NCBI GenBank assembly: GCA_964520185.1
Contig: CAZFON010000001.1
Coordinates: forward strand, 1 to 24,749
Source of the DNA: an uncultured Planctomycetales bacterium
GTDB lineage: Bacteria > Omnitrophota > Gorgyraeia > Zapsychrales > Fredricksoniimonadaceae
Direction of reading: 5' to 3'
Length of the DNA: 24,749 nt
How positions within the stretch are numbered: the first letter of the stretch is position 1; every line of letters begins with the position of its first letter. Of this stretch, positions 5,371 through 24,749 are shown one piece after another. A program made the translations under genes and the position numbers. The notes under the pieces were generated by a model. That model saw nothing but the letters and a program-made list of their open reading frames with translations, made no database searches and was not told the DNA's origin.

Positions 5371-5401
5371 CAACCAGGGCCTTACAGAGCTACTTTTAAG
5401 G

Positions 5402-5451
5402 ATTTTAGTTTAAATACCGCGGGATTAAAGGGTGATTAGAATAAAATTAAA
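5402..5451 (-). promoter_or_regulatory. Putative OmpR/PhoB-family binding site (three T(T/C)TAAT repeats, 11-bp period) plus -10 element
   Basis: Minus strand TTTAAT (5451-5446), TCTAAT (5440-5435), TTTAAT (5429-5424), then TAAAAT (5407-5402) 16 nt after the last repeat. Lies directly downstream of an OmpR-family RR/HK pair. Confidence 0.65.
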
Positions 5452-5454
5452 AAT

Positions 5455-6945
5455 CTATAATCCCGCCATCGTTGCAAGGGAGGTGATGGGAAGGGAAATA
5501 GTAAAAACTGTTCCTTGAGGGACATTGGACCTGACATGGATTTGCCCTCCATGGGCCTTGGCAATGGATTGGGAGATGCTTAAACCCAAGCCGAAGCCTC
5601 CGGTGCTGCGGGACTTATCAACCCTGTAAAAACGGTCAAAGATGCGCGGCAATTCGTCTTTAGGGATGCCGATGCCTGTGTCGGAAATGTCAATGTCCGC
5701 GCCGTCTTTGCCCCGGCGTAAATCAACGGATATCTTGCCCCCTGGGGGCGTATATTTAATGGCATTGTCCAGGATATTGAGGAAGAGCCTTTTAAGCTGC
5801 ACTTTATCAGCCATGATGTCCACTGTATGCGCACCGTTGTATTGGAGCGTAATGTCTTTTTGAACGGCCAATACCTTGATGACTTCCACGGCATCACTGA
5901 TCAACAGGTTCAAGTCAACAGGCTCTTCATGAAGGGCCGTGGTTTTCGCATCAAAACGCGCCAGAACAAGAAGGTTTTCCACGATCTTGCCCAAGCGATT
6001 GACCTCCTCAAGGTTGCTGTACAGGGCGCTCTCGTATTCCTGTGCGGAACGCACCTTTTTCAGGGTGACCTCCAGTTCACCTTTTAAAACAGACAAAGGG
6101 GTCTTGAGTTCATGAGAAATGTCTTCCATAAACTGCCGTTGGGTAGTAAAGGCCTCATCCAGACGGGCGATCATTTGATTGAATGTTTTGGCCAGCGACT
6201 CAATTTCATCCTTGCTGCCCGGGATCTCAAGCCGTAACTTCAAATTTTCCGCCGTGATCTGATGAATGGTAGCGATCATCTGGTCAACGGGCTTAAGGGT
6301 CATCTGGACCAAAAAAACACCGCTCAATCCGGTCAGGACAACGGTCAGCGGCAAAAGAAACATCAGGGAAAAACTTAAATTGCGCAAAAGCTCATGCGGC
6401 TGGGCTAAAGGTGAGGCCACCTGGACGATATAGGAAAGCCTCCTGTTTTCCAGAACCGGCTCTGTAAAGATCCTGAACAAGGACGGCTTGCCGTTGACCT
6501 CAAGATAGTCGTTATCAAAATGATTGCCCCCTTTTTTCACCGCAATAAAAATGCGCGCATTCAAATGCTCCGTGGGAATATTTCTGGAAGAAGCAATGGG
6601 GCCGCCATGGGCGTCAAAGATGCGCACGATGATGCTTATCAAATTAGGGTCACTGATCTTTTCGCCCACCCAACGCTTGGCGATCCTGATGAAATTGATA
6701 TTGTCCACCTTGGCAAAATGGATCTTGGAGGCGCCAGCTTCGGCGATGTCCATCTGCTCGGCGGCCCAATAGGTATCAATGGACTGCTCGATGCCTTTAG
6801 CGCGGGAGCGCAGGATATCATCGGTATCCTGGGAGATCTTTCGTTGGAGATTCTGGTAAAGCACCAGGCCGAAGATAAACAGGGCCAGGGACAGGATGAA
6901 CATGTGCCAAAGGACTATCTTGAAACGGATGGATTGAAAAAACAT
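5455..6945 (-). CDS. Sensor histidine kinase (2 TM, HAMP, HisKA, HATPase; CusS/CzcS-like)
   Basis: H-box EDISHELKTPL, N-box NILDNAIKY, G-boxes ISDTGIGI and GGFGLGLSI; two hydrophobic segments flank a periplasmic domain. Confidence 0.95.
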   Translation of the reverse strand: MFFQSIRFKIVLWHMFILSLALFIFGLVLYQNLQRKISQDTDDILRSRAKGIEQSIDTYWAAEQMDIAEAGASKIHFAKVDNINFIRIAKRWVGEKISDPNLISIIVRIFDAHGGPIASSRNIPTEHLNARIFIAVKKGGNHFDNDYLEVNGKPSLFRIFTEPVLENRRLSYIVQVASPLAQPHELLRNLSFSLMFLLPLTVVLTGLSGVFLVQMTLKPVDQMIATIHQITAENLKLRLEIPGSKDEIESLAKTFNQMIARLDEAFTTQRQFMEDISHELKTPLSVLKGELEVTLKKVRSAQEYESALYSNLEEVNRLGKIVENLLVLARFDAKTTALHEEPVDLNLLISDAVEVIKVLAVQKDITLQYNGAHTVDIMADKVQLKRLFLNILDNAIKYTPPGGKISVDLRRGKDGADIDISDTGIGIPKDELPRIFDRFYRVDKSRSTGGFGLGLSISQSIAKAHGGQIHVRSNVPQGTVFTISLPITSLATMAGL

Positions 6946-6948
6946 GTC

Positions 6949-7620
6949 TTACTTTTTGGCAAGCAGGTATCCCTTGCCGCGTACGGTATGGATCATCTTA
7001 TCCGAAAAACCGCTGTCAATTTTATTGCGCAGATAATTGATATAGACATCGATCACGTTGGTGAAGGTATCGAAATTGATGTCCCAGACATGCTCAGAGA
7101 TCATGGTGCGGGTGACGATGTTGCCGGTATTGCGCATCAGGTATTCCAGTAATGCATATTCCTTGACGGTCAATTCGATCTCGCGGCCGCTCCTGGTGAC
7201 CTTATGCGTCAACAAGTCCATGCACAACTCGTCCACCTTCAGCTGGGTCTGCACTCGGCCGTCTTTTTTACGCAAAACAACCCTCAGACGCGCCAGGAGC
7301 TCTTCGAAAGCAAAAGGCTTAGGGAGATAATCGTCCGCACCGGAATCCAGCCCCTTTACCTTGTCCTTGACCGTGTCCTTGGCTGTGAGCATGATGATAG
7401 GCGTCTGGTTGCCTTCTTTGCGCAAGGTACGGCAAAGCGTCAAGCCGTCTATCTTGGGCAGCATCAGATCCAGGATAACGGCATCATACTCATTGGTACT
7501 TAATAAAAAGTGCCCTTCCTCCCCGTCTTGGGCCACATCAACCGCATAGCCTTCTTCCTTAAGGCCGCGCTTGACGAACTGGGATATCTTCGATTCGTCC
7601 TCAACAACAAGTATTCGCAT
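6949..7620 (-). CDS. OmpR/PhoB-family DNA-binding response regulator (CusR/CzcR-like)
   Basis: MRILVVEDE, phospho-acceptor VILDLMLP, GADDYLPKPF, winged-helix NVIDVYINYLRNKID and IHTVRGKGY. Confidence 0.96.
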   Translation of the reverse strand: MRILVVEDESKISQFVKRGLKEEGYAVDVAQDGEEGHFLLSTNEYDAVILDLMLPKIDGLTLCRTLRKEGNQTPIIMLTAKDTVKDKVKGLDSGADDYLPKPFAFEELLARLRVVLRKKDGRVQTQLKVDELCMDLLTHKVTRSGREIELTVKEYALLEYLMRNTGNIVTRTMISEHVWDINFDTFTNVIDVYINYLRNKIDSGFSDKMIHTVRGKGYLLAKK

Positions 7621-7624
7621 AAAT

Positions 7625-8284
7625 TTAAACCATCCTGGTCAACTGTTGAATAAGTTTCTCTATCCCCTCGTTGAGCTCGCTGATCCGGGCATCAAGCATA
7701 TAACAAGGAGTGGTCACTACTTTATTGTTTTTATCGACCACGATGCTACGCGCATCGGTATTCGTGGTCCTGGCTCCGGTTTTCTGGAAAATCGCATTGA
7801 TCTTTTCATCCTGTCCGAAGGTCACGTTGACATTTTTCAACAGATGAGCGATGATCACGGGAGATATGCACAAAGCACCTATCGGTTTCTTTGCCGCGTG
7901 CATGGAGCACACCGCCCTTTGGACCTCAGGCAAGACCGTCATTTTATCACCATCCCTGGCAAAGGTGCAAAGATTATGCGCCACCCCGTTGCCGCCGGGC
8001 ATTACCAGGATGTCAAAATCTTCCTGGCGGAAATCCGTCAAAGGCTTGATCCTGCTGCGCGCAATACGGGCCGCTTCAAGAAGCACATTACGCTTTTCTG
8101 TCATTTCCTCATTGGTCAGGAAATTAAGTACCCGGGCATAGGGCACATCAGGGGCAAAACACTGGTAATGGTGGCCTGCTTTATCGATATTCAAGAGCGT
8201 TAACACGGATTCATGGATCTCTGCCCCGTCCTTATTACCACAGCCGGCCAGGATCACGGCGAAGGACAACGTATTGTGGTCCAT
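7625..8284 (-). CDS. elbB: ElbB/ES1-type glyoxalase (DJ-1/PfpI superfamily); likely start MDHNT at 8284
   Basis: LAGCGNKDGAEIHE, MPGGNGVAHNL, ALCISP, VVTTPCYM. GGAGGG upstream of the ATG; 1-nt overlap with the upstream stop. Confidence 0.9.
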   Translation of the reverse strand: MDHNTLSFAVILAGCGNKDGAEIHESVLTLLNIDKAGHHYQCFAPDVPYARVLNFLTNEEMTEKRNVLLEAARIARSRIKPLTDFRQEDFDILVMPGGNGVAHNLCTFARDGDKMTVLPEVQRAVCSMHAAKKPIGALCISPVIIAHLLKNVNVTFGQDEKINAIFQKTGARTTNTDARSIVVDKNNKVVTTPCYMLDARISELNEGIEKLIQQLTRMV

Positions 8285-8559
8285 CAATCCCTCCAAAAAT
8301 ATAAGGCAGCAGTCAAGGCAATGCCGATGATAAACACCAGCCATGTGTTGCCGACAAAGAACGTATAAAGCATCAGCACAATGCCTATCACCATCGGCCG
8401 CCAGCTTTTTTCTCTTTTACCATGCAAAAAAGCAAACCAGCCGATAAGGCCGAAAACGGTACCGCCAATAAGGTTCCACCAATTAAGACCATCCGGCCCC
8501 ATGAGATTGGACAATCCATAAGCGCTTAAAACCGCATTGAGGGTCTTATCATCAGGCAT
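8284..8559 (-). CDS. Small membrane protein (about 3 hydrophobic segments), function unknown
   Basis: 91 aa with pattern FGLIGWFAFLHGKR..WRPMVIGIVLMLYTFFV..WLVFIIGIAL; fits tightly between neighbours (3-nt gap and 1-nt overlap). Confidence 0.75.
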   Translation of the reverse strand: MPDDKTLNAVLSAYGLSNLMGPDGLNWWNLIGGTVFGLIGWFAFLHGKREKSWRPMVIGIVLMLYTFFVGNTWLVFIIGIALTAALYFWRD

Positions 8560-8562: not shown

Positions 8563-9207
8563 TTACTCCAGAATAATAACTGGTTGATATTGCTGCTTGA
8601 GCCAGTGCAAGAGCCTGCGTATGTTCCTTTGGTTAAGTGCCACACAACCAGAGGTCGGACTGTCATACCTGCGCCAAACATGTATAAAAATAGCGCTTCC
8701 GGCGCCCCTGACAACAGGATGCCTATTATACCCTATGACTATCCCATATTGGTAGAGATTATCAAAACGCTTCATCCTTTCAAAGGAGCCCGCTGGAAGA
8801 GGACCTTTTACCCATTCATTATATTGCACGGAAGTTACATCATCCACCCAAAAATCATCTGTGCTGGCCTGACGGTACGAAAGGCCCGTGTCAATCGACG
8901 GAGCATATCCAAAAGCTGTTTCCAGGGGATATATACCCGACGGTGTTTTGCCGTCCCCTTCCCTTTTGGCGTTGGCTGCGGCCAGACCGTTCTTGCCGAT
9001 CATCGCGCTTGCCAACAATTCCCGGCGCCAAGAGCTTCCCTGCCTTTGCCAGGTACTTAAAGAAGCCCGACAAGACCCATTTTTAACAGGAGAGACGATG
9101 ATAACTTGATGAATAGCGGTATCAAGGTCCCCTAACGGTTTTGGAACGGTTGTACAACAGCCCTGCAAGGATATCAGGATCAAATATAAAATGAGCTTAG
9201 ATGTCAT
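8563..9207 (-). CDS. L,D-transpeptidase-family (YkuD-like) lipoprotein; likely start MTSKL at 9207
   Basis: Lipobox LQGC, KREGDGKTPSG, GSAIFIH and TSGCVAL (His/Cys catalytic motif). Confidence 0.88.
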   Translation of the reverse strand: MTSKLILYLILISLQGCCTTVPKPLGDLDTAIHQVIIVSPVKNGSCRASLSTWQRQGSSWRRELLASAMIGKNGLAAANAKREGDGKTPSGIYPLETAFGYAPSIDTGLSYRQASTDDFWVDDVTSVQYNEWVKGPLPAGSFERMKRFDNLYQYGIVIGYNRHPVVRGAGSAIFIHVWRRYDSPTSGCVALNQRNIRRLLHWLKQQYQPVIILE

Positions 9208-9209
9208 GG

Positions 9210-10613
9210 CTATTTGGGTGGACAATAGATGGATTCCTGATATTCCTCGTAATCCGTATTGACAGCCCAGAGATCGACCTTTTCTCCTTTGCCGATATAA
9301 TTAGCGGCCAAGAGCCCCATCAGGATGCTATGGTCCTGGTTGTTGTATTTAAAAGCGCCATATCTGCCTATCACCATCATCCCTTTTATTTTTTCGAGAT
9401 AGCTTTGGATCATCTTCAAATTATTTCTATACCCTTTGAAGTAAACAGGATAACACCGGGGGATCCGAACGACATCCCCGTTCATGATGCGCCCTTTTTT
9501 AAATTTTAATTGCTCCAATTCGCTCGAAGCAAGTTCAATAAGCTCCTCTGATGAGGCTCTCCACAGGGCGTCTTCGTCGTTACACCAGTACTCCATGGCC
9601 ACAATGCTTGTCTTTTCATCCCCATACATCTCCGGGACCCAATTCCTGAAATTGGTGATCCTTCCGGTCTTGACCTCGGGCGATTGCACATAGATCCACT
9701 GGTCAGGGAATAAATCAGTGCTATCGACATTCAAATAAACCAAAATCGTGTTCCTGAACTTCAATCCCTGGGCCGCCTTTTGGATGTCCTCTGGGACGTT
9801 TTCCAACCGGCTGACTAACAAAGAAAGGGGCATTGTTGAGATAATATGGTCATAACGATCACAGGCCTTCCCATCGGCCAACGCGAGGCCAACGGTCCTG
9901 TCGCCTTCGAGCATGACCTTATCAACGGGTGTTTTATAAAACACCTTGCCGTTATGCTTCTCAACGAAATCGGCCATACGCTGATATACCGAACCCGTAC
10001 CCTGGCAAGGATAGGCAAATTGCTCGAGGAGCGTGCGGTGCTTGTTAAATTTGTCCTTGAAAAAAGCATTGAAGATGGCGCTGGACAAGGAAAGTTTCTT
10101 GATCCTTTGCGAGGCAAAATCAGCATCGATCTGGGAACAAGGCATGCCCCATAATTTCTCACTGTAAGGTCTGAAAAAAATATCAAAAAGGCGCCTGCCA
10201 AACCTACGGGTCACCCAAGCTTCGAAGCCGCCGTCTTGTTTGGTGGGAACAATGGACTCTTTCAAATAATACAGGACGCAAACGACGGATTGTGCCATCC
10301 CCAGATTGCTTAAGGCATTCAAGGGGCTGAGCGGATAGGTGTAAAATTTCTGCTTATATAAAATACGCGTCAAGCGACGGACTACTTTATAATCACTGCC
10401 CACCACTTCAAGCCACAGGTCATTGACCCTTTTGTCCTTACTGAAAAAACGGTGCGGCCCCAGATCCACCCGCTGGTTCCATAAACAGATCGTCTTGGCC
10501 ATCCCCCCCGGCGTCTCGCCGGCCTCAAAAACATGGACCTCAATGCCCTGCTTGGCTAAAGCATAGGCCGCCGTGATCCCTGCCGGTCCTGCACCGATGA
10601 CAGCAACCTTCAT
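9210..10613 (-). CDS. FAD/NAD(P)-dependent oxidoreductase (HemY-like / UDP-galactopyranose-mutase-like superfamily), substrate unknown
   Basis: VAVIGAGPAGITAA dinucleotide fold, DLGPHRFFSKD, YSEKLWG, C-terminal GRYGAFKYNNQDHS. Confidence 0.85.
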   Translation of the reverse strand: MKVAVIGAGPAGITAAYALAKQGIEVHVFEAGETPGGMAKTICLWNQRVDLGPHRFFSKDKRVNDLWLEVVGSDYKVVRRLTRILYKQKFYTYPLSPLNALSNLGMAQSVVCVLYYLKESIVPTKQDGGFEAWVTRRFGRRLFDIFFRPYSEKLWGMPCSQIDADFASQRIKKLSLSSAIFNAFFKDKFNKHRTLLEQFAYPCQGTGSVYQRMADFVEKHNGKVFYKTPVDKVMLEGDRTVGLALADGKACDRYDHIISTMPLSLLVSRLENVPEDIQKAAQGLKFRNTILVYLNVDSTDLFPDQWIYVQSPEVKTGRITNFRNWVPEMYGDEKTSIVAMEYWCNDEDALWRASSEELIELASSELEQLKFKKGRIMNGDVVRIPRCYPVYFKGYRNNLKMIQSYLEKIKGMMVIGRYGAFKYNNQDHSILMGLLAANYIGKGEKVDLWAVNTDYEEYQESIYCPPK

Positions 10614-10634
10614 TTTTCTATGGACCTCTATCTT

Positions 10635-12059
10635 TTAATGGATACCCTTGAACAAATAAAGATAATAATGCTCATCCTGCAATTGGCCCTTGGTAAAACT
10701 ATCCAGCTTTTGGACCGAAGGCGACAATAATGAATTCTCCAAGGGATGGCTTAAGGCCAACACCGCGTCTTTCTTGAATTGCCGGGAGATCCGTTGGGCT
10801 TGATCAAGCATTTGCTGCGACGAAAATTCGGCTGCTTTATTATCATAAATGTAAAATGTCCCCCAACGCTCCCTGACTAAATAAAAAACCGGCTTGTTTA
10901 AATATCCTGAGATAGGGACACCTCCGGAGCCGGCCACAATGATGGGCAACTGGTCCAGCTTATGCATTTTAATATATATGGCCGCATCCTTGCCATCGGA
11001 AAAAGTTAAATTCAAATTCGACTTGTACGCACCCAGTCCCACGGCCAATTGGATAAACAATACAACGGTGATAAGCCTATTGGCCCAGGAAGGGATTTGT
11101 GGGCAAATCCACCAGCAAGCAACCAAAAGAATGAATAAATGGCCCATGTGCCTGGAAAATAAATTGTTGATCATGGAGAAAAATAGGACAAGCCCCAGGA
11201 CGCCGATGGCATATAAAAATAAGACTGATCCTTTCCGATAAAAAAAGAAAAAAGACAGAAAGAAAAATAAATATGAAAATTGCAGTAAAGATACACTGAT
11301 CATTCTTATGCTTCCCCAATAAGGGAAATAGGCCAGTATCAGACTCTTGAAAAACGGCCGCGGTCCAGGCCATGAAATAAGCCCTTTGATCCATCCGCTG
11401 TCTGGCAAGGGGTTCATGATGATGAGACCCGTAAAAACAGCGCTGATCAATAAAAAAAGGGCCACCAAAGCCTGGGGACGTTTATGTTCCAACAGCACCG
11501 GCATTTGAATGGCTTCCAGGACCAAAAAAGCCGCAAAAGCAACGGCCAGGATCAACCCCAGGATACTAGTGAAATTAAGCAAAATAAGGACCAGGGCCAA
11601 CAATAAATAATCTCTTTTTTGTTGGCGCGCTAATATACAAAACAAAAAAATAAAAAACACTCCCAGCACGTAACTCCTGCTGATCAAAGCAAATTCATAG
11701 AATAAAAACCATCCAAAGATCAGGAAGACCTTCTGTAATCTGCTAAAAGGGGCAAACTTAAGGACAAGCCAGGCATTAATGCTGGCCAGACCCAAATGTA
11801 GAAATTGCATGCTCTTCGGGTTGGAAGTAATATTTTTGAACCAAAAAAGCAGGAAATACCATAAGGGAGGGTGACTTTCATAACGAAGGTTATAAAGCAA
11901 TTCAGGGATGGAATGGCTGTAGCGGGCGATCAGCCACGCCTGCAGTTCATCACGCCACAAATCATGATGCAAGACGCCAAAGATCCCTAATATAATAAAA
12001 AGAACAGAATAAATTTCTACAAAAAAACGGCCATAAAACCACGTTAAAGATTTAATCAT
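10635..12059 (-). CDS. GT-C-fold integral membrane glycosyltransferase (PMT/ArnT-like); likely start MIKSL at 12059
   Basis: Many TM segments; first-loop WRDELQAW (DE motif) and YESHPPLWY (HPPL); soluble C-terminal tail. ATG overlaps the upstream stop by 8 nt. Confidence 0.78.
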   Translation of the reverse strand: MIKSLTWFYGRFFVEIYSVLFIILGIFGVLHHDLWRDELQAWLIARYSHSIPELLYNLRYESHPPLWYFLLFWFKNITSNPKSMQFLHLGLASINAWLVLKFAPFSRLQKVFLIFGWFLFYEFALISRSYVLGVFFIFLFCILARQQKRDYLLLALVLILLNFTSILGLILAVAFAAFLVLEAIQMPVLLEHKRPQALVALFLLISAVFTGLIIMNPLPDSGWIKGLISWPGPRPFFKSLILAYFPYWGSIRMISVSLLQFSYLFFFLSFFFFYRKGSVLFLYAIGVLGLVLFFSMINNLFSRHMGHLFILLVACWWICPQIPSWANRLITVVLFIQLAVGLGAYKSNLNLTFSDGKDAAIYIKMHKLDQLPIIVAGSGGVPISGYLNKPVFYLVRERWGTFYIYDNKAAEFSSQQMLDQAQRISRQFKKDAVLALSHPLENSLLSPSVQKLDSFTKGQLQDEHYYLYLFKGIH

Positions 12060-12966
12060 CTTGGGCCCCTTCTCGATGGCATGCATGGTCGATAGCATCA
12101 AAAAAACCGGGATCTGCGGCGTAATCCAGCTTCCTGGCAAATAATTTTTCCGAGCCGGCCATCAGACCCAATTCTTGACGGGACAATGGGCATGGATGCG
12201 GGAACTTTTCCGACGGCCATCTCGAGTAGACCAGATTATCATTAATGATCCTGTCCTTTTGAGACGAATTCAACAAGACCGTATGGATAAAAGTTTCATC
12301 CGGTACCAGTGTGAACCTAAAAAATGAGACGAACTTTTGATGCGTACTTACGAACTCCAGGATATATTCGACGGCTTCTTTGTCCAGGCACCACCACTGC
12401 CAGCCGCCGTAAGGCTGAAGGTCAAAGACATACCTTCTTTGAATGATCCCGTTTAAACCGATCTTTTTCAGAAAAGGACGCAGTCGCCAGTACATCAAGT
12501 GCTCTAAAAAAGGCAGTCGCATCAAATGCCAGTAGCATAACCGGCCCATGCCCCCCTCTTCCATGTCCCAATGGTGCATGGATGTCGGCAGCTTCCAATA
12601 TTCTAGAAAAAGATGGCCCTTGTTTTTCTCAAAATATTCCTGGATAGCCTGCTTGCTCTTGATGGGATAATGGGTGCCGGACAATAAGAGGACATAATCA
12701 AAATCAAAATTTTTTTCACGGATAAACGCCATGGCATTAAGCTCGACCTGAACAATGCTAAAATCCCCCCAATACACCTCCATCCGCGCGAGCAGTTCTA
12801 CGTTGGTTTTACCCTTGAAGGCCTCTTGGTACCTGCGAAAAATATCCGGCTTGGTCTTTTTATCAACGTGGATGAGAAACCTGCTTTCGGGTCCGTCCAA
12901 CCTTTGCACCATCCTAGAAACAAGTGCAGGTTCTTCATGGGCGATAATGATATAAATGAATTTCAT
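12052..12966 (-). CDS. Core-2/I-branching-type glycosyltransferase (GT14-like)
   Basis: YIIIAH, FLIHVDKK, VYWGDFSIV, LLSGTHYPIKS, GWQWW, VPDETFIHT, LFARK are typical of this family. Confidence 0.9.
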   Translation of the reverse strand: MKFIYIIIAHEEPALVSRMVQRLDGPESRFLIHVDKKTKPDIFRRYQEAFKGKTNVELLARMEVYWGDFSIVQVELNAMAFIREKNFDFDYVLLLSGTHYPIKSKQAIQEYFEKNKGHLFLEYWKLPTSMHHWDMEEGGMGRLCYWHLMRLPFLEHLMYWRLRPFLKKIGLNGIIQRRYVFDLQPYGGWQWWCLDKEAVEYILEFVSTHQKFVSFFRFTLVPDETFIHTVLLNSSQKDRIINDNLVYSRWPSEKFPHPCPLSRQELGLMAGSEKLFARKLDYAADPGFFDAIDHACHREGAQDD

Positions 12967-12972
12967 GACGTT

Positions 12973-13776
12973 TTATTTAACAGGATGCACCAATTTATTT
13001 TTAAGCCCTTTGAAAGACGAATGTTCAAAATGAAAACGCAAACTGCCGTCCGTCAATGAAACATTGGTTGAATCTATATAAAACAAATTCCGCTGTCCCC
13101 AACGCACAAATCTGCCTTTCCCTCCGAAATCCCTTATCTTAAACCCTCCTTGATAAAGCAGGGTCGCGATCAATGCCTCCTGATGCCCCTTCCAACCATG
13201 TCCATGCATCCTGTCGACATACTGCAACGCCCTGTGAGAGATACGGTAGATGGGGTTAAACGATCGCAACGTTTGACGGCGATCAATATTCCCTTCAGGA
13301 GAGGATAAGGTAGGCCAGTAATACCAGGCCGGCTCTTCTTTGTAAGTGCGTATGTGGGCTGTGATAAAATCGTCACCGGCATCCCTAAAATGAGAAAAAA
13401 ACTTCTTCCAATCCCCGATGAACCTAACATCGTATTCAATGTTCCAATAATAGCTGTAGTTCCGCTGGCGCCCAAAGCAGATGACAGGCCAATGGTTGTG
13501 TCCCGGGATAAGAGGCCCATCCCGTCGGATATCTTCCAAAAAAGCCAGATCGTGAATGTCTTTTTCTGAAAAGGTCCAATGAGGGCACTTCAATATCTCC
13601 TGGTCAACAGGCCTGCCGTCCCGGTTATCGTAAGAAATAAAACAATCGGCCCATCCGGAGCAGGCATCCTTGATTCTCTGGAATTCCTCCAAGGCCTTGT
13701 CTGAAAATTGATGCATGGCAAAAAGGACCGCCTGTTTTCCGGCAGGAACAGCCTGTTTTCTAAAAAAATGGAACAC
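12973..13776 (-). CDS. Hypothetical GT-A-like protein resembling DUF3405
   Basis: YSYYWNIEYDVRFIGDW, DFITAHI, RSFNPIYRIS, GHQEALIAT. GTG start with GGGGGAG upstream, abutting the GT31-like stop. The family assignment is from memory of the motif only. Confidence 0.6.
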   Translation of the reverse strand: MFHFFRKQAVPAGKQAVLFAMHQFSDKALEEFQRIKDACSGWADCFISYDNRDGRPVDQEILKCPHWTFSEKDIHDLAFLEDIRRDGPLIPGHNHWPVICFGRQRNYSYYWNIEYDVRFIGDWKKFFSHFRDAGDDFITAHIRTYKEEPAWYYWPTLSSPEGNIDRRQTLRSFNPIYRISHRALQYVDRMHGHGWKGHQEALIATLLYQGGFKIRDFGGKGRFVRWGQRNLFYIDSTNVSLTDGSLRFHFEHSSFKGLKNKLVHPVK

Positions 13777-14589
13777 CTATCTCCCCCGCCTTCCGCACAA
13801 GGTAAAGAATATAGAACGCATGATGTTCGATAACAGGTTCAACGCATATTTTAAAATAAGCATCATCGTAAAAAATACATTGTTCCGACCTTGCAACCAG
13901 TCCATCTCAGAGGGCGAACAAGGATGGAAGGAGGCGGCAAAAAAAATTTCTCTGACAAAATGCCTGTTCAAAGTAAACTTTTCTTTAAGGGACAAAAGGA
14001 CCGATACAGACATCCCCTTGCCTCTTAAGGTATCGCCGATCAATTTATCTTCATACAATTCCTTATCAATATACTGGCCATGATCATTAATGACGCATCG
14101 AAGCGCTTTTTTGCTTAAGAAATAGCCGGAGCCTCCCATCATCCAAGGCCCGTAAAATACGCCCGGGTAGGCTACATTCTTCAAATGAGATCCGACATGT
14201 TTTTTATGCCACTTGGTATCAACGTGGTCCATGTCCTTATATTGAAAGCCGGCGTAATCAAGGGCATCAAAAGGCAATTTCAATAATTCAGGCACATTGA
14301 CGTAGGTATCATCATCGCATTTATAAATATGGCTATAATCCATATGTTCATCGACAAAGCGCAAGAAAGCGATGGTCTTATGCGGAAGATCCAAATAATC
14401 ATCCCCGCAATCCAAATAAAGAATGTCTCCCTCAATGGCCGGCTTCTTATCAGGCCGGCCGACCAAAAAACAAGCCCTCAGCCCCAACCTCGAACAATCT
14501 TTTAACCAACTCCGGCGCACCCCATCATGCCTTTGGGGATACTTGGCACAGCCAAGAATGCCAATAATTAAGGATGATGAATTGTTCAT
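13777..14589 (-). CDS. GT31-like (galactosyltransferase/Fringe-type) glycosyltransferase; likely start MNNSS at 14589
   Basis: VRRSW, DDYLDLPHKT, YKCDDDTYVNV (DDD motif), GGSGYFLS, EDKLIG, FHP. ATGA overlap with the upstream gene. Confidence 0.85.
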   Translation of the reverse strand: MNNSSSLIIGILGCAKYPQRHDGVRRSWLKDCSRLGLRACFLVGRPDKKPAIEGDILYLDCGDDYLDLPHKTIAFLRFVDEHMDYSHIYKCDDDTYVNVPELLKLPFDALDYAGFQYKDMDHVDTKWHKKHVGSHLKNVAYPGVFYGPWMMGGSGYFLSKKALRCVINDHGQYIDKELYEDKLIGDTLRGKGMSVSVLLSLKEKFTLNRHFVREIFFAASFHPCSPSEMDWLQGRNNVFFTMMLILKYALNLLSNIMRSIFFTLCGRRGR

Positions 14590-16229
14590 GCTTTCAGGTG
14601 TTGTTTCCATTTTTCCTGAAATAACAGATAGTTTTTGTGCCACAGTTCTTCGCGATGAGGAAGTTTATGGCTGGTTGCCTTGCCGATATGGCGAACAAAG
14701 ACCTTCTCAGTCACATAAATATCATAGCCGGCTTTCCAGATCTTGCATTGGAAGTCCAGGTCCTCTCCACTGGCGGGCGAAAATTCCCCACTAAAACCAC
14801 CGACTTGCAGAAAAATATCCCGTTTAAGAAAAAAGGCAACCCCCGCACAGTTGGGCTTTGACCAGGGTTCAGTTTTAATGATCTTATCGCCCTTTCCCTT
14901 TCTCTTATTGCCTTCCAACAAAATATTATTTGTACAAGGGATAAGCAGGCCGCAGTTATCCAGGCTTTCATATTCAGCAACCAACTCCCTGCCCCAATCT
15001 TCAAGAGGCCAGACAGTATCGTTATTCGTCAAAAGGATATATTTACAGCCTGCCATCTGGACGGCTTTATTAAACCCTTTTCCGAAGCCCTGATTTCCCT
15101 CAAATTTGAAATAATGTTCCGTTTGTTCCGCTAGAAAGACGGACGTCGAAGGCAGAGATCCATTATCAACGATGACCAACTCATAAATGATGCTCCGGTT
15201 GGAGCGAAGGGACTTCAAAAACCTCTTGGTGAAATCCAGCCCATCCCAAACCAGGGTGCAAACACTGATCTGAGCTTCGGCCTTCAGATGCTTGGTTTTC
15301 GAGAAAACGATCGGAAAACACCAATGCCCAGTACAAAACGCACTGTAGCGAAGCATAAATCCAGGATAGGCGCTCAACCATTGTCTCCAACCACGCGATC
15401 GTCCATAGGAATTCCAATATGCGCCTAACAATAAATACCCGAAAAAACACAAGGAAGCTACATCATCAAAAATCTTATTTCCCCATCCCAGCATCCAACT
15501 CACAAAAGCGGCCAACAATAAGCAGGAACCGTAAGATATAAAAGGAAATTGCCTATGCCTGATCTTAAAATAAGCAATGGAATATCCGTAACAAAACTGC
15601 TGAGTAAGGGTAGCCTTAAAACCATTTCGTTGATAATGGGTAACCAAGGCTTCTTGGGTATAATAGACCTTTTTATTCTGCTTGTGGCAGCGCTCGCAAA
15701 TGTCCCAATCATCCGCTGCCAGCAATAAACGTTCGTCAAAAGGATTATCTTCAAGGAATTTCTTCCTAAAGGCCATGTTACAGCCCCTGATCTGTGCCAC
15801 ATATCCGTTATGTGCGGCAATAAAATCCCTGTCTTGATTGACCATGGACCAATAGCCCCGGCTCGGAGGAGATTTTATCTTCCCCCCTACGATCATCGTG
15901 TCTGCATCAAGCATAAATGGTCTTAGCAACTCCTCCAACCATTGCCGGTCAACAATACAATCCGAATCCGTAAAAGCCACCACTTCCCCACGGGCCAACG
16001 ATACGCCTATATTACGGGAAAAACTTAAGCCCTGGTTGGACCCGTTTGAGTGAAAAGCTATCCTGGGGTCCTTCATGGCGGCTATCTTCTCTTTGGTGGC
16101 ATCATAAGAGCCGTCATCAATAACAATAACTTCATATTCTTCTTTAAAATCCTGATCTAAGACCGAATGCAGGCACCGCTCAATAAAGTCCTCTCTATTA
16201 AAAACAGGGATGACAACGCTGACAAGCAT
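14586..16229 (-). CDS. Two-domain GT2 glycosyltransferase with an internal hydrophobic segment
   Basis: Domain 1: VVIPVFNRE, IDDGS, NQGLSFSRN, FTDSD. Domain 2: IVDNGS, NQGFGKGFN, LTNND, EDLDF, VRHIGKAT. Hydrophobic stretches lie between the domains. Confidence 0.92.
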   Translation of the reverse strand: MLVSVVIPVFNREDFIERCLHSVLDQDFKEEYEVIVIDDGSYDATKEKIAAMKDPRIAFHSNGSNQGLSFSRNIGVSLARGEVVAFTDSDCIVDRQWLEELLRPFMLDADTMIVGGKIKSPPSRGYWSMVNQDRDFIAAHNGYVAQIRGCNMAFRKKFLEDNPFDERLLLAADDWDICERCHKQNKKVYYTQEALVTHYQRNGFKATLTQQFCYGYSIAYFKIRHRQFPFISYGSCLLLAAFVSWMLGWGNKIFDDVASLCFFGYLLLGAYWNSYGRSRGWRQWLSAYPGFMLRYSAFCTGHWCFPIVFSKTKHLKAEAQISVCTLVWDGLDFTKRFLKSLRSNRSIIYELVIVDNGSLPSTSVFLAEQTEHYFKFEGNQGFGKGFNKAVQMAGCKYILLTNNDTVWPLEDWGRELVAEYESLDNCGLLIPCTNNILLEGNKRKGKGDKIIKTEPWSKPNCAGVAFFLKRDIFLQVGGFSGEFSPASGEDLDFQCKIWKAGYDIYVTEKVFVRHIGKATSHKLPHREELWHKNYLLFQEKWKQHLKA

Positions 16230-16250
16230 AGTTTTTAAGTAAAAGCGTTT

Positions 16251-18143
16251 CTATTTTTTTAAAAAATTATACAATAAATGCTGTTTTTGGGGATCTTTAA
16301 AGAAATCTTTATGTATAAAAAGATACGCCTGAGAGCTTCGCTCAATAAGGAAATATTCAAGATTAATAACCCGTATCTCTTTAAGAATGGCTGGAAGATC
16401 GGAATCACTATTCCCTTGCTCTTTCTCTTTACTTCTTAGAAAAAGCAACACATCCGGCATGAGGGGTCTATCATGCTCAAGGATCCATGACCTGTTCTGT
16501 AATTTCGTCCCATAGAGAGTTGAGTTGACCATGTCAAACGTCGGATGATTGAGCGTTGATATGGCACAGTATAGAGGTTTGGCATCATCCAAGGTCAAAT
16601 AGTCCACCACACCTAACGCCGTAAAACTGTCTGGATCCAATTTGACCTGTAAAAAATAATTTCTATTGATAAGGGCCTTGATAGGCCCATCAATGCGGTA
16701 ACTGGGATCATTATTGCTTAAATTAACAACGGCCAAGACTGCAAATAGAATGCATGATATCCTGATGGCCCTGCTAAAAAAAACTTTTTTGTCAAAGATC
16801 ATCATGGCTTGCCCTAAAGCCAGAAGACCCAGGGCCACCATAAAAATAGAATAACGGGACGTCCAAGAATAATCTTGTAAGGGAACCACCAATAATTGTC
16901 CTAAGCCAAGAACAAGCAGCGAATACACCCAAAAATCAAACCAATTTCTTCGTGCCATGGATCTTACCCATACCAACAACCAAGCCGGAAAAGCCAAGGA
17001 CCAGAAGATCAAACCATAACCGCCATGCAGTGTTCCTAAGCCAATATCCTTCCAGTTAAGAAATAATTTGTGAGGGATAACCTTCATAAATCTCCAAAGA
17101 TCAACGTTTTGGGCATGCTCAGTAAATATCCCCAGGCTGTCTTGAGAAAAAGGCACTGGATAAATGGGCGTTTTTAATGCCCAGAGATTACGCAGATACC
17201 AAAAGCCGCCGGCTATGATAAAAATAATGATAAAACCGAACCATCGTTTCAGCGTTACGGGCCTCGAACATAAGAACGGCAGCACCGAAAGGATAAATAT
17301 AGCCTCATTATATTTCATGCCCCATAACAACCCGGCAGCCAAGGCTGTTGAATAAAAGTACAATAAACGGCCGGTTTTATAAAACACCCCAGCCGCATAC
17401 ACAACAGTTAAAAAGAAAACAGCAATAATGACATCGATGTAACAACAGCCCATTTGAGACAGGACCACAGGGGTCAATAGGAACAATAAGCTGACAAATA
17501 GGGAGATCTTTGACCCCAGACCGAGGATCCTTCCCAGCCCGTACATGACGGCCGTTCCCCAAAAGGCCACTATTAATTGAACGCTGTTGACTAATTGCTG
17601 ACTATGAAGGACTATCGCCGGCCACATAAAAAGAAGTTCGGCATTTTCTGGAAAAGCAAAACGTTTGTTAACTTCAACGGGTAATAGATATATCTTATGG
17701 TCAATGATATATTGAAGGATAGGGGGCAAATGATAGGAAAGCTCGTCGCCATTCCTAGGAGGGAAAAAACAAATCGCAGTGACCATCCATATCAATACGA
17801 AGCCGGCAAGAACAAGCAAAAAGATGTTCTCCCAGGCCATCACACTTTTAATACCCTCCCTGATCGTTCGGCATTCTTGAAGCCATAAAGCTCCCCCATC
17901 TCTTCCCCATATGCCTAAGGTCAGCAAGATCGTAGCAATTCCTAAATTAAGAAAGATTAAATCAGGCAAATATAAAACTTTGATGATGCCGAGGAACAGC
18001 TCCGTGAGGATGACCTGACCAAAGCTCCAAAGACCAGCAAGTATGATCTTTTGATGAAAATTGCTAGGGACCGGCCTGGTCAAGAAAAAATAATTACTGA
18101 AGAAAATAAATGCAGATACGGCCAATAAAAGTAGGATCATCAT
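16251..18143 (-). CDS. GT-C-fold integral membrane protein (ArnT-like putative glycosyltransferase)
   Basis: 630 aa, many TM segments; loop motif GDELSYHLPP, then FPENAELL, YIDV, GMKY, WYLRN, SRY. Confidence 0.72.
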   Translation of the reverse strand: MMILLLLAVSAFIFFSNYFFLTRPVPSNFHQKIILAGLWSFGQVILTELFLGIIKVLYLPDLIFLNLGIATILLTLGIWGRDGGALWLQECRTIREGIKSVMAWENIFLLVLAGFVLIWMVTAICFFPPRNGDELSYHLPPILQYIIDHKIYLLPVEVNKRFAFPENAELLFMWPAIVLHSQQLVNSVQLIVAFWGTAVMYGLGRILGLGSKISLFVSLLFLLTPVVLSQMGCCYIDVIIAVFFLTVVYAAGVFYKTGRLLYFYSTALAAGLLWGMKYNEAIFILSVLPFLCSRPVTLKRWFGFIIIFIIAGGFWYLRNLWALKTPIYPVPFSQDSLGIFTEHAQNVDLWRFMKVIPHKLFLNWKDIGLGTLHGGYGLIFWSLAFPAWLLVWVRSMARRNWFDFWVYSLLVLGLGQLLVVPLQDYSWTSRYSIFMVALGLLALGQAMMIFDKKVFFSRAIRISCILFAVLAVVNLSNNDPSYRIDGPIKALINRNYFLQVKLDPDSFTALGVVDYLTLDDAKPLYCAISTLNHPTFDMVNSTLYGTKLQNRSWILEHDRPLMPDVLLFLRSKEKEQGNSDSDLPAILKEIRVINLEYFLIERSSQAYLFIHKDFFKDPQKQHLLYNFLKK

Positions 18144-20659: not shown

Positions 20660-22063
20660 TTACGGCTGAAGTTCTATCATTACCCACGAAGCATTATCCA
20701 ATGGAAAATTACCCAACGAAGTCCTGGCACTAGTCAATATCTTCTGCGGATCGCCCAGCAATTTCAAAGGCACCTTGATGGTAATATCATTGGATGTCCT
20801 GCCCACCCATACCGCGTTCTGATTCAAGCGTTTATTCTGGTCATAGACATTGTAACTTAGAACGCCCAGGCGCACATGGATCTTGGGGATCTGCCCAAAA
20901 GGCGTTTTGTTACTATAGCCGAAAAAATAAATGGAGGCTTCCACGTCCTGGGCCAGGGGTTTGGAAAGCCCGATGGTAACAATAAGGTTATCGGGCTCCC
21001 AGCGTAAAGATTTCCAGTCGACCCCCACAAAGGCGGAGCGCTCCTGTTCATTTAATTCTTCGGGGATCTCCGGAGTGTTCATCAATTTCTTTTGCCCGGA
21101 AATAACGGCAATGCTTTGGTCCAAATGCAGCTTCAAGGGCGGGATATCGCCGAATATCTCATTGAATTTAACAAAGGATAACAGGTATCTGGGAGAAGAA
21201 AAATACTGGGTCTTATGGGCGCCCAAGGCTTTTTTCTTGGTGGCCAACTGCAATGGGGTCAGATGATACTGACTCCATATTTCATCCGTTCCCAAAGCCG
21301 GCGGCGGGGTCAATTCCAACTCAGGATGAAAGCCTTTGGGTTTGGGCCATGTCAGGTAATGAACCAGATAGGGATATAACTCAACATCCTTGTCCATCCC
21401 CTCATCCCAAAGGGCCACGTGCAAATACAAATAAAAAGCCAGATGGTCGCCGTTATGGTCCGCCGGATGGGAAACAAAAACTTTAGTCGGCTTGAAATCC
21501 TTGAGCACAGACCTTAAATCTCCAACGATCTCTTCGCCTTTATAGGGAGCATTGAAACGGTAGGCGCTTTTATAGGGCACAGCTGTCACACGGGTCAGAA
21601 GGCTCCTGTACGGGGGCCTCTTGTCCCAGTGATAATACCAAATATTCAAGGTGCCGAAATCCGGATAGCCCAGGAAGATCAAATTCTCCGGCCCCACGCC
21701 CAAAATGCGTGAAGCATTCACGGCTTCATCGTGCCGCACCAAGCCCATGGTCTCAACGGCACCCGGGAATACCACCGGATGCTTGCGATAAAGGAGAAAG
21801 GACCATTGATTGCTGTCACCATAGGTCAAAAAAACAATTTTGACCGGGAGGTTCATGGCCACGGCCTGTTGGATCACTCCGCCGGCACCCAACACTTCGT
21901 CATCGGGATGAGGGGCCAACACCAGGATACGGTCCGCTGGATTTAAGACCACCTTGCCCATCTTGACCCCATCGACTAAAACAGCGGCCTGCAAGGAGCC
22001 CTCAGGGGCAAAGGCCAGCAAAAAAATCACCGCCGTACTAATGGCTTGAAACTGTTTTAACAT
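20660..22063 (-). CDS. PIG-L/LmbE-family metal-dependent deacetylase with predicted signal peptide and extra C-terminal domain (start 22063 or 22099)
   Basis: LAPHPDDE, LTYGD, VRHDEA, FLGYPD, HPADHNGDH; N-terminus MLKQFQAISTAVIFLLAFAPEGSLQA. Confidence 0.88.
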   Translation of the reverse strand: MLKQFQAISTAVIFLLAFAPEGSLQAAVLVDGVKMGKVVLNPADRILVLAPHPDDEVLGAGGVIQQAVAMNLPVKIVFLTYGDSNQWSFLLYRKHPVVFPGAVETMGLVRHDEAVNASRILGVGPENLIFLGYPDFGTLNIWYYHWDKRPPYRSLLTRVTAVPYKSAYRFNAPYKGEEIVGDLRSVLKDFKPTKVFVSHPADHNGDHLAFYLYLHVALWDEGMDKDVELYPYLVHYLTWPKPKGFHPELELTPPPALGTDEIWSQYHLTPLQLATKKKALGAHKTQYFSSPRYLLSFVKFNEIFGDIPPLKLHLDQSIAVISGQKKLMNTPEIPEELNEQERSAFVGVDWKSLRWEPDNLIVTIGLSKPLAQDVEASIYFFGYSNKTPFGQIPKIHVRLGVLSYNVYDQNKRLNQNAVWVGRTSNDITIKVPLKLLGDPQKILTSARTSLGNFPLDNASWVMIELQP

Positions 22064-22697
22064 ATAATAGCGAATGATAATGTTCCTCTTTCCCTTCACG
22101 GATCTGGATCATCGGATAACGTTCACGGACCACAAAACCATGGGCACTGAAAAAAGCAGCAGCGGCTGTATTGGCCTCATGGACAGACGCCGCTAATTCA
22201 ACGATGTGGGCACGGGATGCATGCTGCTCCAAGGCTTTTAATAAACCCTGCCCTACCTTGCGGCCACGAAAATCTTCAGCAATACCGATATGCAAATGCC
22301 CTTGATGGCTATGAAAGGAACTTTTACGCCAGACAAGGAGCCTGCGCCAATTCTTTAATGCCCCTTGCAGGAGCTGACGGATCTCAGCCTTAAAAAAAAT
22401 ACCTCTTTTAAAAGCTTTGATAAGCAAAGCCGGCATCATCAGCCAAAAGACCACCAGCCCGTAACGGCGGTTGTCTAAGCAGCCGTTGATATAACCTATC
22501 AGACGGCCGTCGCATTCGGCCACAAAACTCGATCCAGGCTCAAAATCCGTATAATATTTAGTGAGCAGGTCCGCGGCCACTTCCCGGTTCGGGAAAAAAC
22601 TTTCAATACGCCCCCCCCGGTCCGCCACGTCGCAGCAAAGTTGGCGTAAGGCTTGCCGGTCTCCCGTGCTATATAGTCTAATATTTATTTTAAACAT
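22038..22697 (-). CDS. GNAT-family N-acetyltransferase
   Basis: FVAECDGRLIGYING, acetyl-CoA motif HLHIGIAEDFRGRKVGQGLL, NTAAAAFFSAHGF. Confidence 0.85.
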   Translation of the reverse strand: MFKINIRLYSTGDRQALRQLCCDVADRGGRIESFFPNREVAADLLTKYYTDFEPGSSFVAECDGRLIGYINGCLDNRRYGLVVFWLMMPALLIKAFKRGIFFKAEIRQLLQGALKNWRRLLVWRKSSFHSHQGHLHIGIAEDFRGRKVGQGLLKALEQHASRAHIVELAASVHEANTAAAAFFSAHGFVVRERYPMIQIREGKEEHYHSLLYVKTVSSH

Positions 22698-22726: not shown

Positions 22727-23416
22727 ATGTTTTTCACATTAAAAATAATCATACCTCTCATCTTCAGTCTCCTGGTTCCTTTGCCCCTGGCCTTGGCCCA
22801 GAACAATCTTATTGACCGTATCCAGCACATGGAAAAGTCCATCGTTACGGTCCAGACGGAATTGACCAGAATGATGCAAACAGAACCACCCCGGGCAGCC
22901 ACCTATTATCGCACGGCTGCCGGCCTGGTCATCGACTCTTCCGGCATTATTGTAACAAATACGCACACGATTATACATGCTCCTTTTATTTTTGTGATCC
23001 TGCGCGATGGCACCAAATTGCCGGCGCAGGTGCTCTTTGCTTCGGGAGAATATGATTTCAGCTTCCTTAAGGTCCAACCTCCCCATCGCCTTGCACACGT
23101 ACAATGGGCGGATTCCTCGCAGGTGAATATCGGTGACGAGATCATCGCCGTAGGAAACTCCGACTATAATAACCAATCCATCATGGGAGGCAGGGTCAAG
23201 AGCATTCTTCAGAGCCGATCATCGATGACCAGTGATTTTTTTGAACTGGACCTTGACCTAAATCACGGCGATAGCGGCGGCCCCATCCTCGACGCCAATG
23301 GAAGGCTTCTGGGGATGATCATGGCCAAGCGGGAGTCCCAGGAAAACTCAAGCATTGCGATTGCTTCAAACAAAATACGACAGCAATATTTGCAATTAAA
23401 AGAAAATAGGGGATAA
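22727..23416 (+). CDS. Secreted trypsin-like serine protease (S1C-like) without PDZ domain
   Basis: Signal peptide; catalytic triad motifs VTNTHT, YDFSFL, GDSGGP; stops shortly after the protease domain. Confidence 0.9.
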   Translation: MFFTLKIIIPLIFSLLVPLPLALAQNNLIDRIQHMEKSIVTVQTELTRMMQTEPPRAATYYRTAAGLVIDSSGIIVTNTHTIIHAPFIFVILRDGTKLPAQVLFASGEYDFSFLKVQPPHRLAHVQWADSSQVNIGDEIIAVGNSDYNNQSIMGGRVKSILQSRSSMTSDFFELDLDLNHGDSGGPILDANGRLLGMIMAKRESQENSSIAIASNKIRQQYLQLKENRG

Positions 23417-23425: not shown

Positions 23426-24749
23426 ATGAATAAACAATCTAAATTTTGGCCATGGATGCTGGCTTTTGTAGTACTGGCCGTCTTAAGTTCTTACATACGC
23501 CTATACCCCCTGCGTGTACACTTGTGGGACGATAGCCGCGACCAGGCGACCCTGTTGGTGATCACCAACCTTAAGCAGGCCCTTTTGAAACAAATCCTCA
23601 GCCAAGTCCCGAACATGCCCCCTGCTTATGCCAATCATTTGGCGGATGAGAAACTCAATGAAACCATGCATGTGCACCGCCAAAAAGTCATGGATACCAT
23701 TGACCGCGTTGCCATCAGCCTGTCCCATCAACCCGGTGCCAAACCCCAGAAAGTATATCTCCTGGAATCAGATGGTTATGATTTTTATAATTTGACAGAA
23801 AATATTACCAGGAAAGGCAGCATCGCGGACATCATTAAAGGAAGCAAGTATTTTAACCCCCTGATGGTCGCTCCCTTTGGTTTTTGGCAGCCCTTTACCC
23901 TGCATCCTTACTGGGGTTTTATCATTTACAAATTTCTGAGCATTTTACATCCCACCATCCCCCTGATGAAGGCTGTGGCCTGCACTCCCCTGTTTACCTA
24001 TCTTTTTATCATCGCAGCCTCTTTATGGGTTTGCCGGATACTTGGATTTTCCGCGGTCTCTTCCTTTTTAGGGACTTTGTTCCTAGTCATGGCCCCTATT
24101 AATTTAAAACGAGGCGCCCTGGGATGGTACCGTACAGACCCCTATGCTGTTTTATTCCCTTTATTATTACTAGGGTGCCTTATTCTAGCTTTAAGAGCTG
24201 TCTCCAAAAAAGAAACCTGCCTTTGGGCAGTGATGTTCGGGCTTATCCTCTCTGTCTTCGCGCTGTTTTGGCAAGGCTGGGTCTTATTATTCTTTATCGG
24301 TATGGCCTGCGCTTTGGGAGTGGCCGCCTATAATTTCTTTATCTTAAAAGACAAAGCCCATGCCCGGCATAATTTACTGTTCATCGGCCTCTTCATGGCC
24401 GCGAGCTTCCTGCTCGTAGGCCTGTTCTTCTCTTTTCAGGATTTCTTTATCCTCTTTAAGGAAGCTTTCTGGGAATTAAAGAAATTCACCCATCGCGGCC
24501 TTGATCTGTGGCCGAATTTGTTCATGGCCGTCGGAGAATTAAAAAAGCCGGGCTGGGGAAGCATTCTGTCCCTGGGAAGCGTCACCACCCCGGGCGGCGC
24601 TCCGGATTTCTGGCCGGATGTCAGTCTTATCCTGGTAGCCTCGGTTGGCTGGGTTCTTTCTTTCAAACAGGCCTTTAAAAATTTTCGTCAGACCTATGCC
24701 ATTGATGTGTTGGTGATAACCATTTTTCTCGTAATAACCATGACCCTAA
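23426..24749 (+). CDS. STT3/PglB/AglB-family oligosaccharyltransferase, N-terminal 441 aa; runs off the right edge; not in ORF track
   Basis: Manual translation open from ATG 23426 to the window end: MNKQSKFWPWMLAF.., YLLESDGYDFY (D116), KRGALGWYRTDPY (R229..D238), WPNLFMAVGELKK (E371), many TM helices. The WWDYG motif expected further downstream cannot be seen. Confidence 0.87.
   Translation, partial: MNKQSKFWPWMLAFVVLAVLSSYIRLYPLRVHLWDDSRDQATLLVITNLKQALLKQILSQVPNMPPAYANHLADEKLNETMHVHRQKVMDTIDRVAISLSHQPGAKPQKVYLLESDGYDFYNLTENITRKGSIADIIKGSKYFNPLMVAPFGFWQPFTLHPYWGFIIYKFLSILHPTIPLMKAVACTPLFTYLFIIAASLWVCRILGFSAVSSFLGTLFLVMAPINLKRGALGWYRTDPYAVLFPLLLLGCLILALRAVSKKETCLWAVMFGLILSVFALFWQGWVLLFFIGMACALGVAAYNFFILKDKAHARHNLLFIGLFMAASFLLVGLFFSFQDFFILFKEAFWELKKFTHRGLDLWPNLFMAVGELKKPGWGSILSLGSVTTPGGAPDFWPDVSLILVASVGWVLSFKQAFKNFRQTYAIDVLVITIFLVITMTL

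Follow-up and report, generated by a model that had tools for sequence, protein, structure and literature searches.

The question raised by this locus is whether an enzyme with the fold of an oligosaccharyltransferase can still function when Arg occupies the place of an Asp that binds its metal ion. The gene lies at the right end of the window, the 24,749-nucleotide stretch of contig CAZFON010000001.1 analysed here, and appears as a rightwards frame of 441 codons (coordinates 23426–24749, forward strand) that begins with ATG, has no stop codon and is open at the window end; going upstream, the first in-frame stop is at 23414–23416. It is absent from the list of open reading frames because the listing tool omits frames running off an end, and the opposite strand contains no open reading frame of 80 aa or more. 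Translation bears out the residues from which an earlier note on this DNA had drawn its reading: D116 within DGY (23771–23773), the string RGALGWYRTD at positions 229–238 (R229 and G230 at 24110–24115, R236 at 24131–24133, D238 at 24137–24139), and E371 (24536–24538) at the end of AVGE (368–371). The R236 codon is CGT, two base changes from GAY, as that note had also stated. The spacing that it gave for Campylobacter lari PglB is correct, but its rendering of the PglB motif as RSxxG is not: the C. lari sequence taken from the PDB has D56 in NDGY and R147-T-M-S-G151-Y-Y-D154-T-D156, and thus RTxxG, RS being the form of the motif in STT3 and AglB.

The remainder of the gene is available from a second, independent metagenome contig (Ga0265338_10005616, L085), which is identical to the window gene over all of the 1324 nt that they have in common and matches at 5993 of 6000 positions in the 6 kb upstream. 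The gene completed in this way encodes 825 aa, with codons 1–441 in the window, and its product ends in ...KVFKVIY, a C-terminus resembling those of its relatives. The counterpart of the WWDYG loop has the sequence NSWWAPGHF. Located 3′ of this loop is a candidate DK-like motif of the pattern [DN]xxKxxx[ILVM] (WNIKKIEEV in the completed gene, WDFxKAE in the family consensus), assigned by pattern and position only.

Residues 110–339 of the window protein match the Pfam STT3 family (PF02516) with 54.1 bits (cut-off 24.5), and its relatives score 56–78 bits. Judged by this match and by dozens of homologues, the frame belongs to a genuine gene, of which it forms the 5′ half and which is predicted to encode an STT3-fold (GT-C) membrane glycosyltransferase. 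A single-sequence phmmer search of the PDB gave no match, and an initial profile that had lost its N-terminal columns gave noise and a weak match to the WW loop. A family profile built from 116 members, searched against the PDB, finds human STT3A (1.9e-17), A. fulgidus AglB (5e-17) and PglB (4e-9); it pairs eaDpYYY with GND47PWYYY of A. fulgidus AglB and EFD49PYF of STT3A, flqRSafGWYDtDpY with YISRSVAGSYDNE of STT3A and FLQRSILGFNDHH of AglB, and sWWpPGhFI with SWWDYGYQI. Alignment to C. lari PglB with hhalign (98.7% probability) places KRGSLGWF-R-TD opposite NRTMSGYY-D154-TD, AVGE opposite IME319, and WWAPG opposite WWDYG. This global alignment mis-pairs the EL1 region and does not pair D116 with D56, so the equivalence of D116, the putative EL1 catalytic Asp, to PglB D56, AglB D47 and STT3A D49 rests on the AglB and STT3 alignments and on the literature. 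In the latter, PglB D56/R147/D154/D156/E319 correspond to AglB D47/R154/D161/H163/E360 and to yeast D47/D166/E168, and these residues are described as metal-coordinating, and WWD is said to read the +2 Ser/Thr (PMC7226087). The first Asp of the DxD motif coordinates the metal and is conserved in every characterised enzyme of the STT3/AglB/PglB type (PMC7226087).

A predicted structure leads to the same assignment. The AF2 model of P0003, an Arg-type homologue 71% identical to the window protein, has a pLDDT of 95.4 and a pTM of 0.93, and its best 19 PDB matches in a Foldseek search are all PglB, STT3 or AglB, headed by PglB 5OGL (E 1.8e-19, TM 0.65); DPY19, ALG3 and ArnT follow at a distance. 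The C-terminal domain of the model, searched alone, matches 3AAG. Taken together, the alignments and the model indicate that the protein has the STT3/AglB/PglB fold, that of the GT66 oligosaccharyltransferases with Pfam PF02516 and PF21436, and that R236 stands where the metal motif otherwise begins with an invariant Asp. The equation of R236 with PglB D154, proposed from spacing in the earlier note, is thus upheld by the profile HMM, by hhalign and by the published equivalences, which place it also on A. fulgidus AglB D161 and STT3A D167, in the column that begins the DxD/DxE/DxH motif. The other catalytic residues that the note had listed are all kept: D116; R229, equivalent to PglB R147; D238, equivalent to PglB D156; and E371 of the EL5 motif [ST/A]VGE, which corresponds to E319 in the PglB TIxE and to the eukaryotic and archaeal SVSE.

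The protein is one member of a large group. An exhaustive profile search recovers 1650 cluster representatives at E<=1e-3, of which 671 are at E<=1e-30, and the best 150 of the 1650 are nearly all 800–860 aa long. Position 236 is Asp in 143 and Arg in 8 of the best ~150 representatives, with nothing else present. Among the matches listed, D116 (144/144), R229 (151/151) and E371 (157/157) are invariant, as is D238. The Asp of WWD is missing throughout the family, where the loop reads WWPPG (106), WWSPG (23), WWAPG (12) or WWCPG (7), and the acceptor rule is probably not N-x-S/T, as suggested by this loop. The 80 species-representative loci are nearly all from Candidatus Omnitrophota MAGs, some of them labelled ‘uncultured Planctomycetales’; these loci were chosen by the pattern GW[YF]D[TN]D, with which Arg types are not retrievable, and they are uninformative on the frequency of the Arg type.

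Where family proteins are named in public records they are labelled ‘hypothetical protein’. NCBIfam contains no family for the window protein, and its Asp-type relatives match only archaeo_STT3 (TIGR04154) at no more than 59 bits against a cut-off of 450. The main Omnitrophota genomics paper mentions neither glycosylation nor STT3, and literature searches on Omnitrophota oligosaccharyltransferases or STT3, on WWDYG variants and on D154A returned nothing relevant. By its sequences this is a large uncharacterised STT3-like family, nearly confined to Omnitrophota and distinct from the PglB type. Neither the family nor the Arg substitution is present in the libraries and literature searched, and both are new in this sense, the Arg form being a sub-type inside an STT3-like family. 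The earlier description of the protein as an STT3/PglB-type oligosaccharyltransferase stands as regards the STT3/PglB/AglB fold but not as regards the PglB type, with WWAPG in the C-terminal half and WW[P/S/A/C]PG in the family. The note had also held that a C-terminal half lacking WWDxG would mean that the protein is not an oligosaccharyltransferase; extension of the contig reveals WWAPG, and to the letter its own claim is contradicted.

The Arg form recurs in many samples. In neighbour-joining trees all GW[FY]RTD sequences, about 35 in number, constitute one clade amid Asp-type sisters (L003–L009), answering the question posed in the earlier note of whether GWYRTD recurs in a clade. A metagenome scan contributes about 33 full-length Arg-type genes, all of them with D116, R229, G230, R236, D238 and E371, and all with WWAPG except L116 (WWPPG). 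The full-length Arg-type sequences have intact frames of 813–878 residues and are 63–84% identical to one another. Their Arg236 codons are CGC (25), CGT (10), CGG (3) and CGA (1), where relatives have GAC or GAT. Each Asp-to-Arg event requires at least two base changes.

These sequences bear on the explanation that Arg236 is a sequencing or assembly artefact or that the gene is a decaying pseudogene. Frameshifts are present in the STT3-like gene on two related long-read contigs (L001 and L002), as such an explanation would expect. Pseudogenisation was considered as their cause and set aside; they are more likely long-read assembly errors, the short-read contigs being intact. The independent contig L085 carries the identical sequence, the roughly 35 Arg loci come from many samples and show synonymous codon turnover, and the intact frames evolve with a dN/dS of about 0.1, all of which make an artefact or pseudogene hardly credible for the full-length form. 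A base-call error, which the earlier note had thought unlikely, is countered by about 35 close homologues with Arg encoded by all four CGN codons; the outcome that it had seen as fatal, homologues that all have Asp together with an assembly error, is the opposite of what is found, namely an Arg clade and an identical independent contig.

Arg236 is maintained by strong purifying selection in the clade of the window gene. Nei-Gojobori dN/dS values are 0.08–0.15 for the window gene against L001 and L002, and across 80 pairs of full-length Arg-type genes the median is 0.10; these estimates cover Arg-type pairs only, synonymous sites being saturated in Asp-type sister pairs. Where a site is at least 85% conserved in the Asp-type relatives, the Arg clade keeps its residue in all cases except S230G, D236R and one Phe/Ile site. 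A wider list contains 35 Arg-clade-specific changes including Y119D, F226N, S230G, D236R and WWP to WWA, and these five are all at or beside active-site motifs. Residue 119 is encoded at 23780–23782 and is Asp in the window protein and mostly Tyr in Asp-type relatives, and position 230 is Ser or Thr in those relatives.

The substitution is also found outside the main clade. From the trees and nearest relatives, Asp was replaced by Arg at least three times independently: in the main clade, in L120 and in P0039. L120 (818 aa) has R236 encoded by CGG together with S230, Y119 and WWPPG, and groups with the Asp-type L007 and L008 (GAT). P0039 (834 aa) has the motif AWYRDDSY, a WWSPG loop and a protease gene upstream, and its nearest relative is the Asp-type L025 (62% identity), in which D-N-D stands in place of R-D-D. 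In full-length genes only Asp or Arg is present at position 236.

We favour, at about even odds, the reading that the Arg types are still-functional transferases whose donor site has been remodelled and which are probably metal-independent or altered in their use of metal. An Asp-type ancestor would have exchanged the first DxD Asp for Arg together with S230G, Y119D, F226N and WWP to WWA, and the enzyme would continue to transfer a lipid-phosphate-linked glycan. With its guanidinium placed in the acidic pocket of D116, D238 and E371, Arg would stand in for the charge of the divalent cation, or of one of its ligands, towards the donor phosphate or phosphates. Purifying selection, three Asp-to-Arg events and the confinement of full-length genes to these two residues give metal independence indirect support. 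Activity itself is suggested by the retention of all other catalytic residues and loops at 63–84% identity with low dN/dS, and further by the retained gene context, the recurrence of a change that is specifically to Arg, and the precedent of metal-free enzymes derived from DXD-bearing ones (below). Against activity, loss of the universal metal-ligand Asp could simply kill catalysis.

Truncated relatives bear on this last point. A branch comprising P0008–P0016, together with L083, L084, L125 and L127, has open reading frames of 300–370 aa at the same position beside the genes for the PIG-L and GNAT proteins described below. These remnants are without the EL1 segment containing D116 and without the entire C-terminal domain, often have R229H, and have R, G or H at position 236; their loci have lost the protease and the pilus/secretion genes, and their dN/dS is 0.38, against 0.2 for neighbouring genes. 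They derive from the Arg clade, as judged from N226 and G230, which are common to both, and they are what would be expected had the Arg form already lost its original job, which suggests an inactive enzyme. In such a conserved pseudo-enzyme, Arg would salt-bridge the acidic pocket and abolish both metal binding and glycan transfer, and the protein would be retained for some purpose other than catalysis, for example to bind a lipid-linked glycan or peptide, or as a scaffold or chaperone for the protease or the pilus/secretion machinery. The residue lost is, after all, the conserved metal-coordinating Asp, the remnants suggest that catalysis is dispensable, and Arg would be an obvious choice for neutralising an acidic pocket that has been emptied, so that its recurrence could have the same cause. 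We nonetheless consider a pseudo-enzyme doubtful: the roughly 33 full-length Arg types, only 63–84% identical to one another, show no variation in D116, R229, D238, E371 or the WW loop, the low dN/dS extends over the whole gene with no relaxation in the catalytic loops, and several clade-specific changes lie at active-site motifs, unlike the pattern of general decay.

A transferase with a remodelled donor site might instead remain metal-dependent, its cation held by D116, D238, E371 and a new acid nearby, which would be D119 in the main clade and D237 in P0039, with R236 secondary and making, for example, a phosphate or acceptor contact. Y119D is indeed fixed in the main Arg clade, within EL1 and three residues past the catalytic Asp; P0039 has R-D-D where L025 has D-N-D; and the third motif position already varies in AglB and STT3 (His or Glu), indicating some plasticity. 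Yet R236 occurs in L120 although D119 and D237 are both missing there, D119 is present too in the Asp-type L013 and L042, and a positively charged side chain in place of a ligand would keep a divalent ion away, so that re-wired ligands seem improbable to us.

The gene neighbourhood is informative both on orthology and on possible substrates. Directly upstream of the STT3-like gene in the window is a gene for a predicted periplasmic trypsin-like serine protease (PF13365; 22727–23416, forward strand) that bears a signal peptide, has the His and GDSGGP motifs, and ends 9 nt before the STT3-like ATG; from this spacing the two genes are probably co-transcribed. Divergent from the pair are genes for a PIG-L-family de-N-acetylase (20660–22099, reverse strand) and a GNAT acetyltransferase (22038–22697, reverse strand), which are syntenic in L001–L010, including the Asp-type L003–L010, and in the metagenome loci. 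With respect to the PIG-L, GNAT and protease genes, the window gene has the place of the Asp-type genes of sister lineages, and it is therefore their positional orthologue and not an extra copy. Of the suggestion in the earlier note of a non-catalytic paralogue, the paralogue part is thus contradicted.

A serine protease homologue is directly upstream on the same strand in 34–39 of about 80 family loci, about 11 others have an S41/PDZ protease in this slot, and a serine protease is present in every full-length Arg-type locus that has upstream DNA. Downstream and convergent, genes for TPR, PilO-like, PilM-PilN, GspK-like, pseudopilin, GspG and GspF proteins are found in 50–56 of 79 loci, and L085 has TPR, PilO-like, PilMN, GspK and pseudopilin genes downstream of the gene it shares with the window; by homology this is a type IV pilus/type II secretion-like operon. 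The acceptor may be a secreted or pilus-related protein that is handled together with the protease. A glycosyltransferase island at 9210–18143 was considered as the donor pathway and rejected; neither the syntenic region of L002 nor any other locus contains it, which places it outside the conserved module.

Characterised oligosaccharyltransferases of bacteria, archaea and eukaryotes hold their cation through the Asp that is Arg here and read their sequon through the WWD that is WWA or WWP here. The Asp and Arg orthologue pairs of sister lineages offer a natural test of whether the metal is chemically required or serves only as a charge neutraliser, as for GT6. The family flags a large unannotated group of enzymes in a phylum of uncultured nanobacteria and points to a surface-glycosylation system linked to protease and pilus/secretion genes. 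The fullest interpretation, which we put forward tentatively, is that the Arg types would be the first natural cation-free STT3-fold transferases, reached three times, in a family that glycosylates acceptors other than N-x-S/T with the protease, possibly pilus or secretion substrates; if true, a metal-free enzyme without the usual sequon need would be of interest to glyco-engineers.

Among known systems, C. lari PglB (PDB 3RCE/5OGL) is the best full-length structural match to the P0003 model, over both the transmembrane and periplasmic domains. The R-x-x-x-G-x-x-[D]-T-D spacing is identical, and the TIxE-like Glu and the WW..G loop align. The two differ in that they have only 12% identity, D154 is replaced by Arg and WWDYG by WWAPG, and in the window protein about 80 additional aa separate TM1 from the EL1 Asp. 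There is also no pgl-type locus here, the gene having a protease upstream and pilus/secretion genes downstream, and the host belongs to the phylum Omnitrophota instead of Campylobacterota or Desulfobacterota. By sequence profile the nearest relatives are A. fulgidus AglB and the eukaryotic STT3A, STT3B and Stt3 (E about 1e-17), with which the family shares DP[YW]YYY in EL1, RS..G..D and the SVSE-like [ST]VGE; the first motif Asp (D161/D166/D167) is Arg in the window protein, and the WWD Asp is missing family-wide.

A mechanistic analogy for the Arg form is provided by natural replacements of the carboxylate metal motif in two other glycosyltransferase families. GT6 enzymes in which NXN replaces DXD, as in Bacteroides ovatus GT6a, and the GT14 enzyme C2GnT-L, with Arg378 and Lys401, are metal-free, cationic or polar protein groups binding the donor diphosphate (PMC3961637). 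These enzymes differ from the window protein in having the GT-A fold and nucleotide-sugar donors. To our knowledge no such replacement is known for a GT-C/STT3-type enzyme, and literature searches turned up no metal-independent case of that type. The polyprenyl-monophosphate-dependent enzymes DPY19, ArnT, ALG3 and PMT belong to the GT-C fold class, are among the lower-ranked Foldseek matches and, as a group, are not known to depend on a catalytic metal bound by DxD. Their structural match is much weaker (TM 0.35–0.46), and they possess neither the C-terminal domain of STT3 nor the WW loop.

The window opens with ordinary housekeeping and regulatory genes (100-8344), encoding chorismate synthase, dihydroxy-acid dehydratase, large and small aconitase-family subunits that are probably LeuCD, a HAMP histidine kinase with an OmpR-type response regulator, and a DJ-1/PfpI protein; the kinase, regulator and DJ-1 part is syntenic with two other loci of the STT3-like family, L002 and L084. 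A glycosylation gene island follows at 9210-18143 on the minus strand. It codes for a GLF/amine-oxidase-like flavoprotein, a GT14 'Branch' enzyme of the core-2/I-branching type, a GT31 Galactosyl_T, a 547-aa double GT2 protein, a weakly matching DUF3405-like protein, and two polytopic membrane proteins of 501 aa (10635-12140) and 630 aa (16251-18143) without family matches. GT14 and GT31 are families with their main home in eukaryotes. The island looks like a lineage-specific insertion because the syntenic genome L002 lacks it between YkuD and SDF and no other locus carries it.

A minus-strand pair (20660-22697), oriented divergently to the protease and STT3-like genes, is composed of a long (479 aa) PIG-L-family de-N-acetylase gene and a GNAT acetyltransferase gene that overlap by 62 nt. 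This pair is kept across the window's wider clade, including lineages in which the STT3-like gene is truncated, and its predicted products may perform a sugar de-acetylation/re-acylation step.

In these lineages, derivatives of the Arg-type gene (the STT3-like form with R236) are shortened to 296-377 aa at an unchanged syntenic position (L083, 8001-8891; L084, 5419-6426; L125; L127; proteins P0008-P0016). They have lost both the EL1 catalytic segment and the C-terminal domain; R229H is common among them, and position 236 varies among R, G and H. The protease gene is lost from these loci, and a secretin gene lies directly downstream. The derivatives, with a dN/dS of 0.38, may be either remnants undergoing decay or a small membrane protein of a new kind.

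The L002 locus, on a related 1.29-Mb contig, has an IS1595-family transposase gene (9031-9888) between the protease and STT3-like genes. The latter contains two frameshifts, possibly long-read assembly errors, and is followed by hyp and hydrogenase genes without the pilus/secretion genes. Two Asp-type copies (L048 and L078) are present in a single Omnitrophota MAG, SMBSF21, and family paralogues therefore exist in some lineages.

The family loci L003-L082 are usually flanked on one side by a periplasmic serine protease gene, either trypsin-like or S41/PDZ, and on the other by a convergent TPR/PilO/PilMN/GspK/pseudopilin/GspG/GspF operon. These flanks, together with the altered WW loop, suggest a putative, undescribed surface or pilus glycosylation module: throughout the Omnitrophota STT3-like family (e.g. 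L003, 14196-18451), WW[P/S/A/C]PG replaces the WWDYG of known oligosaccharyltransferases.
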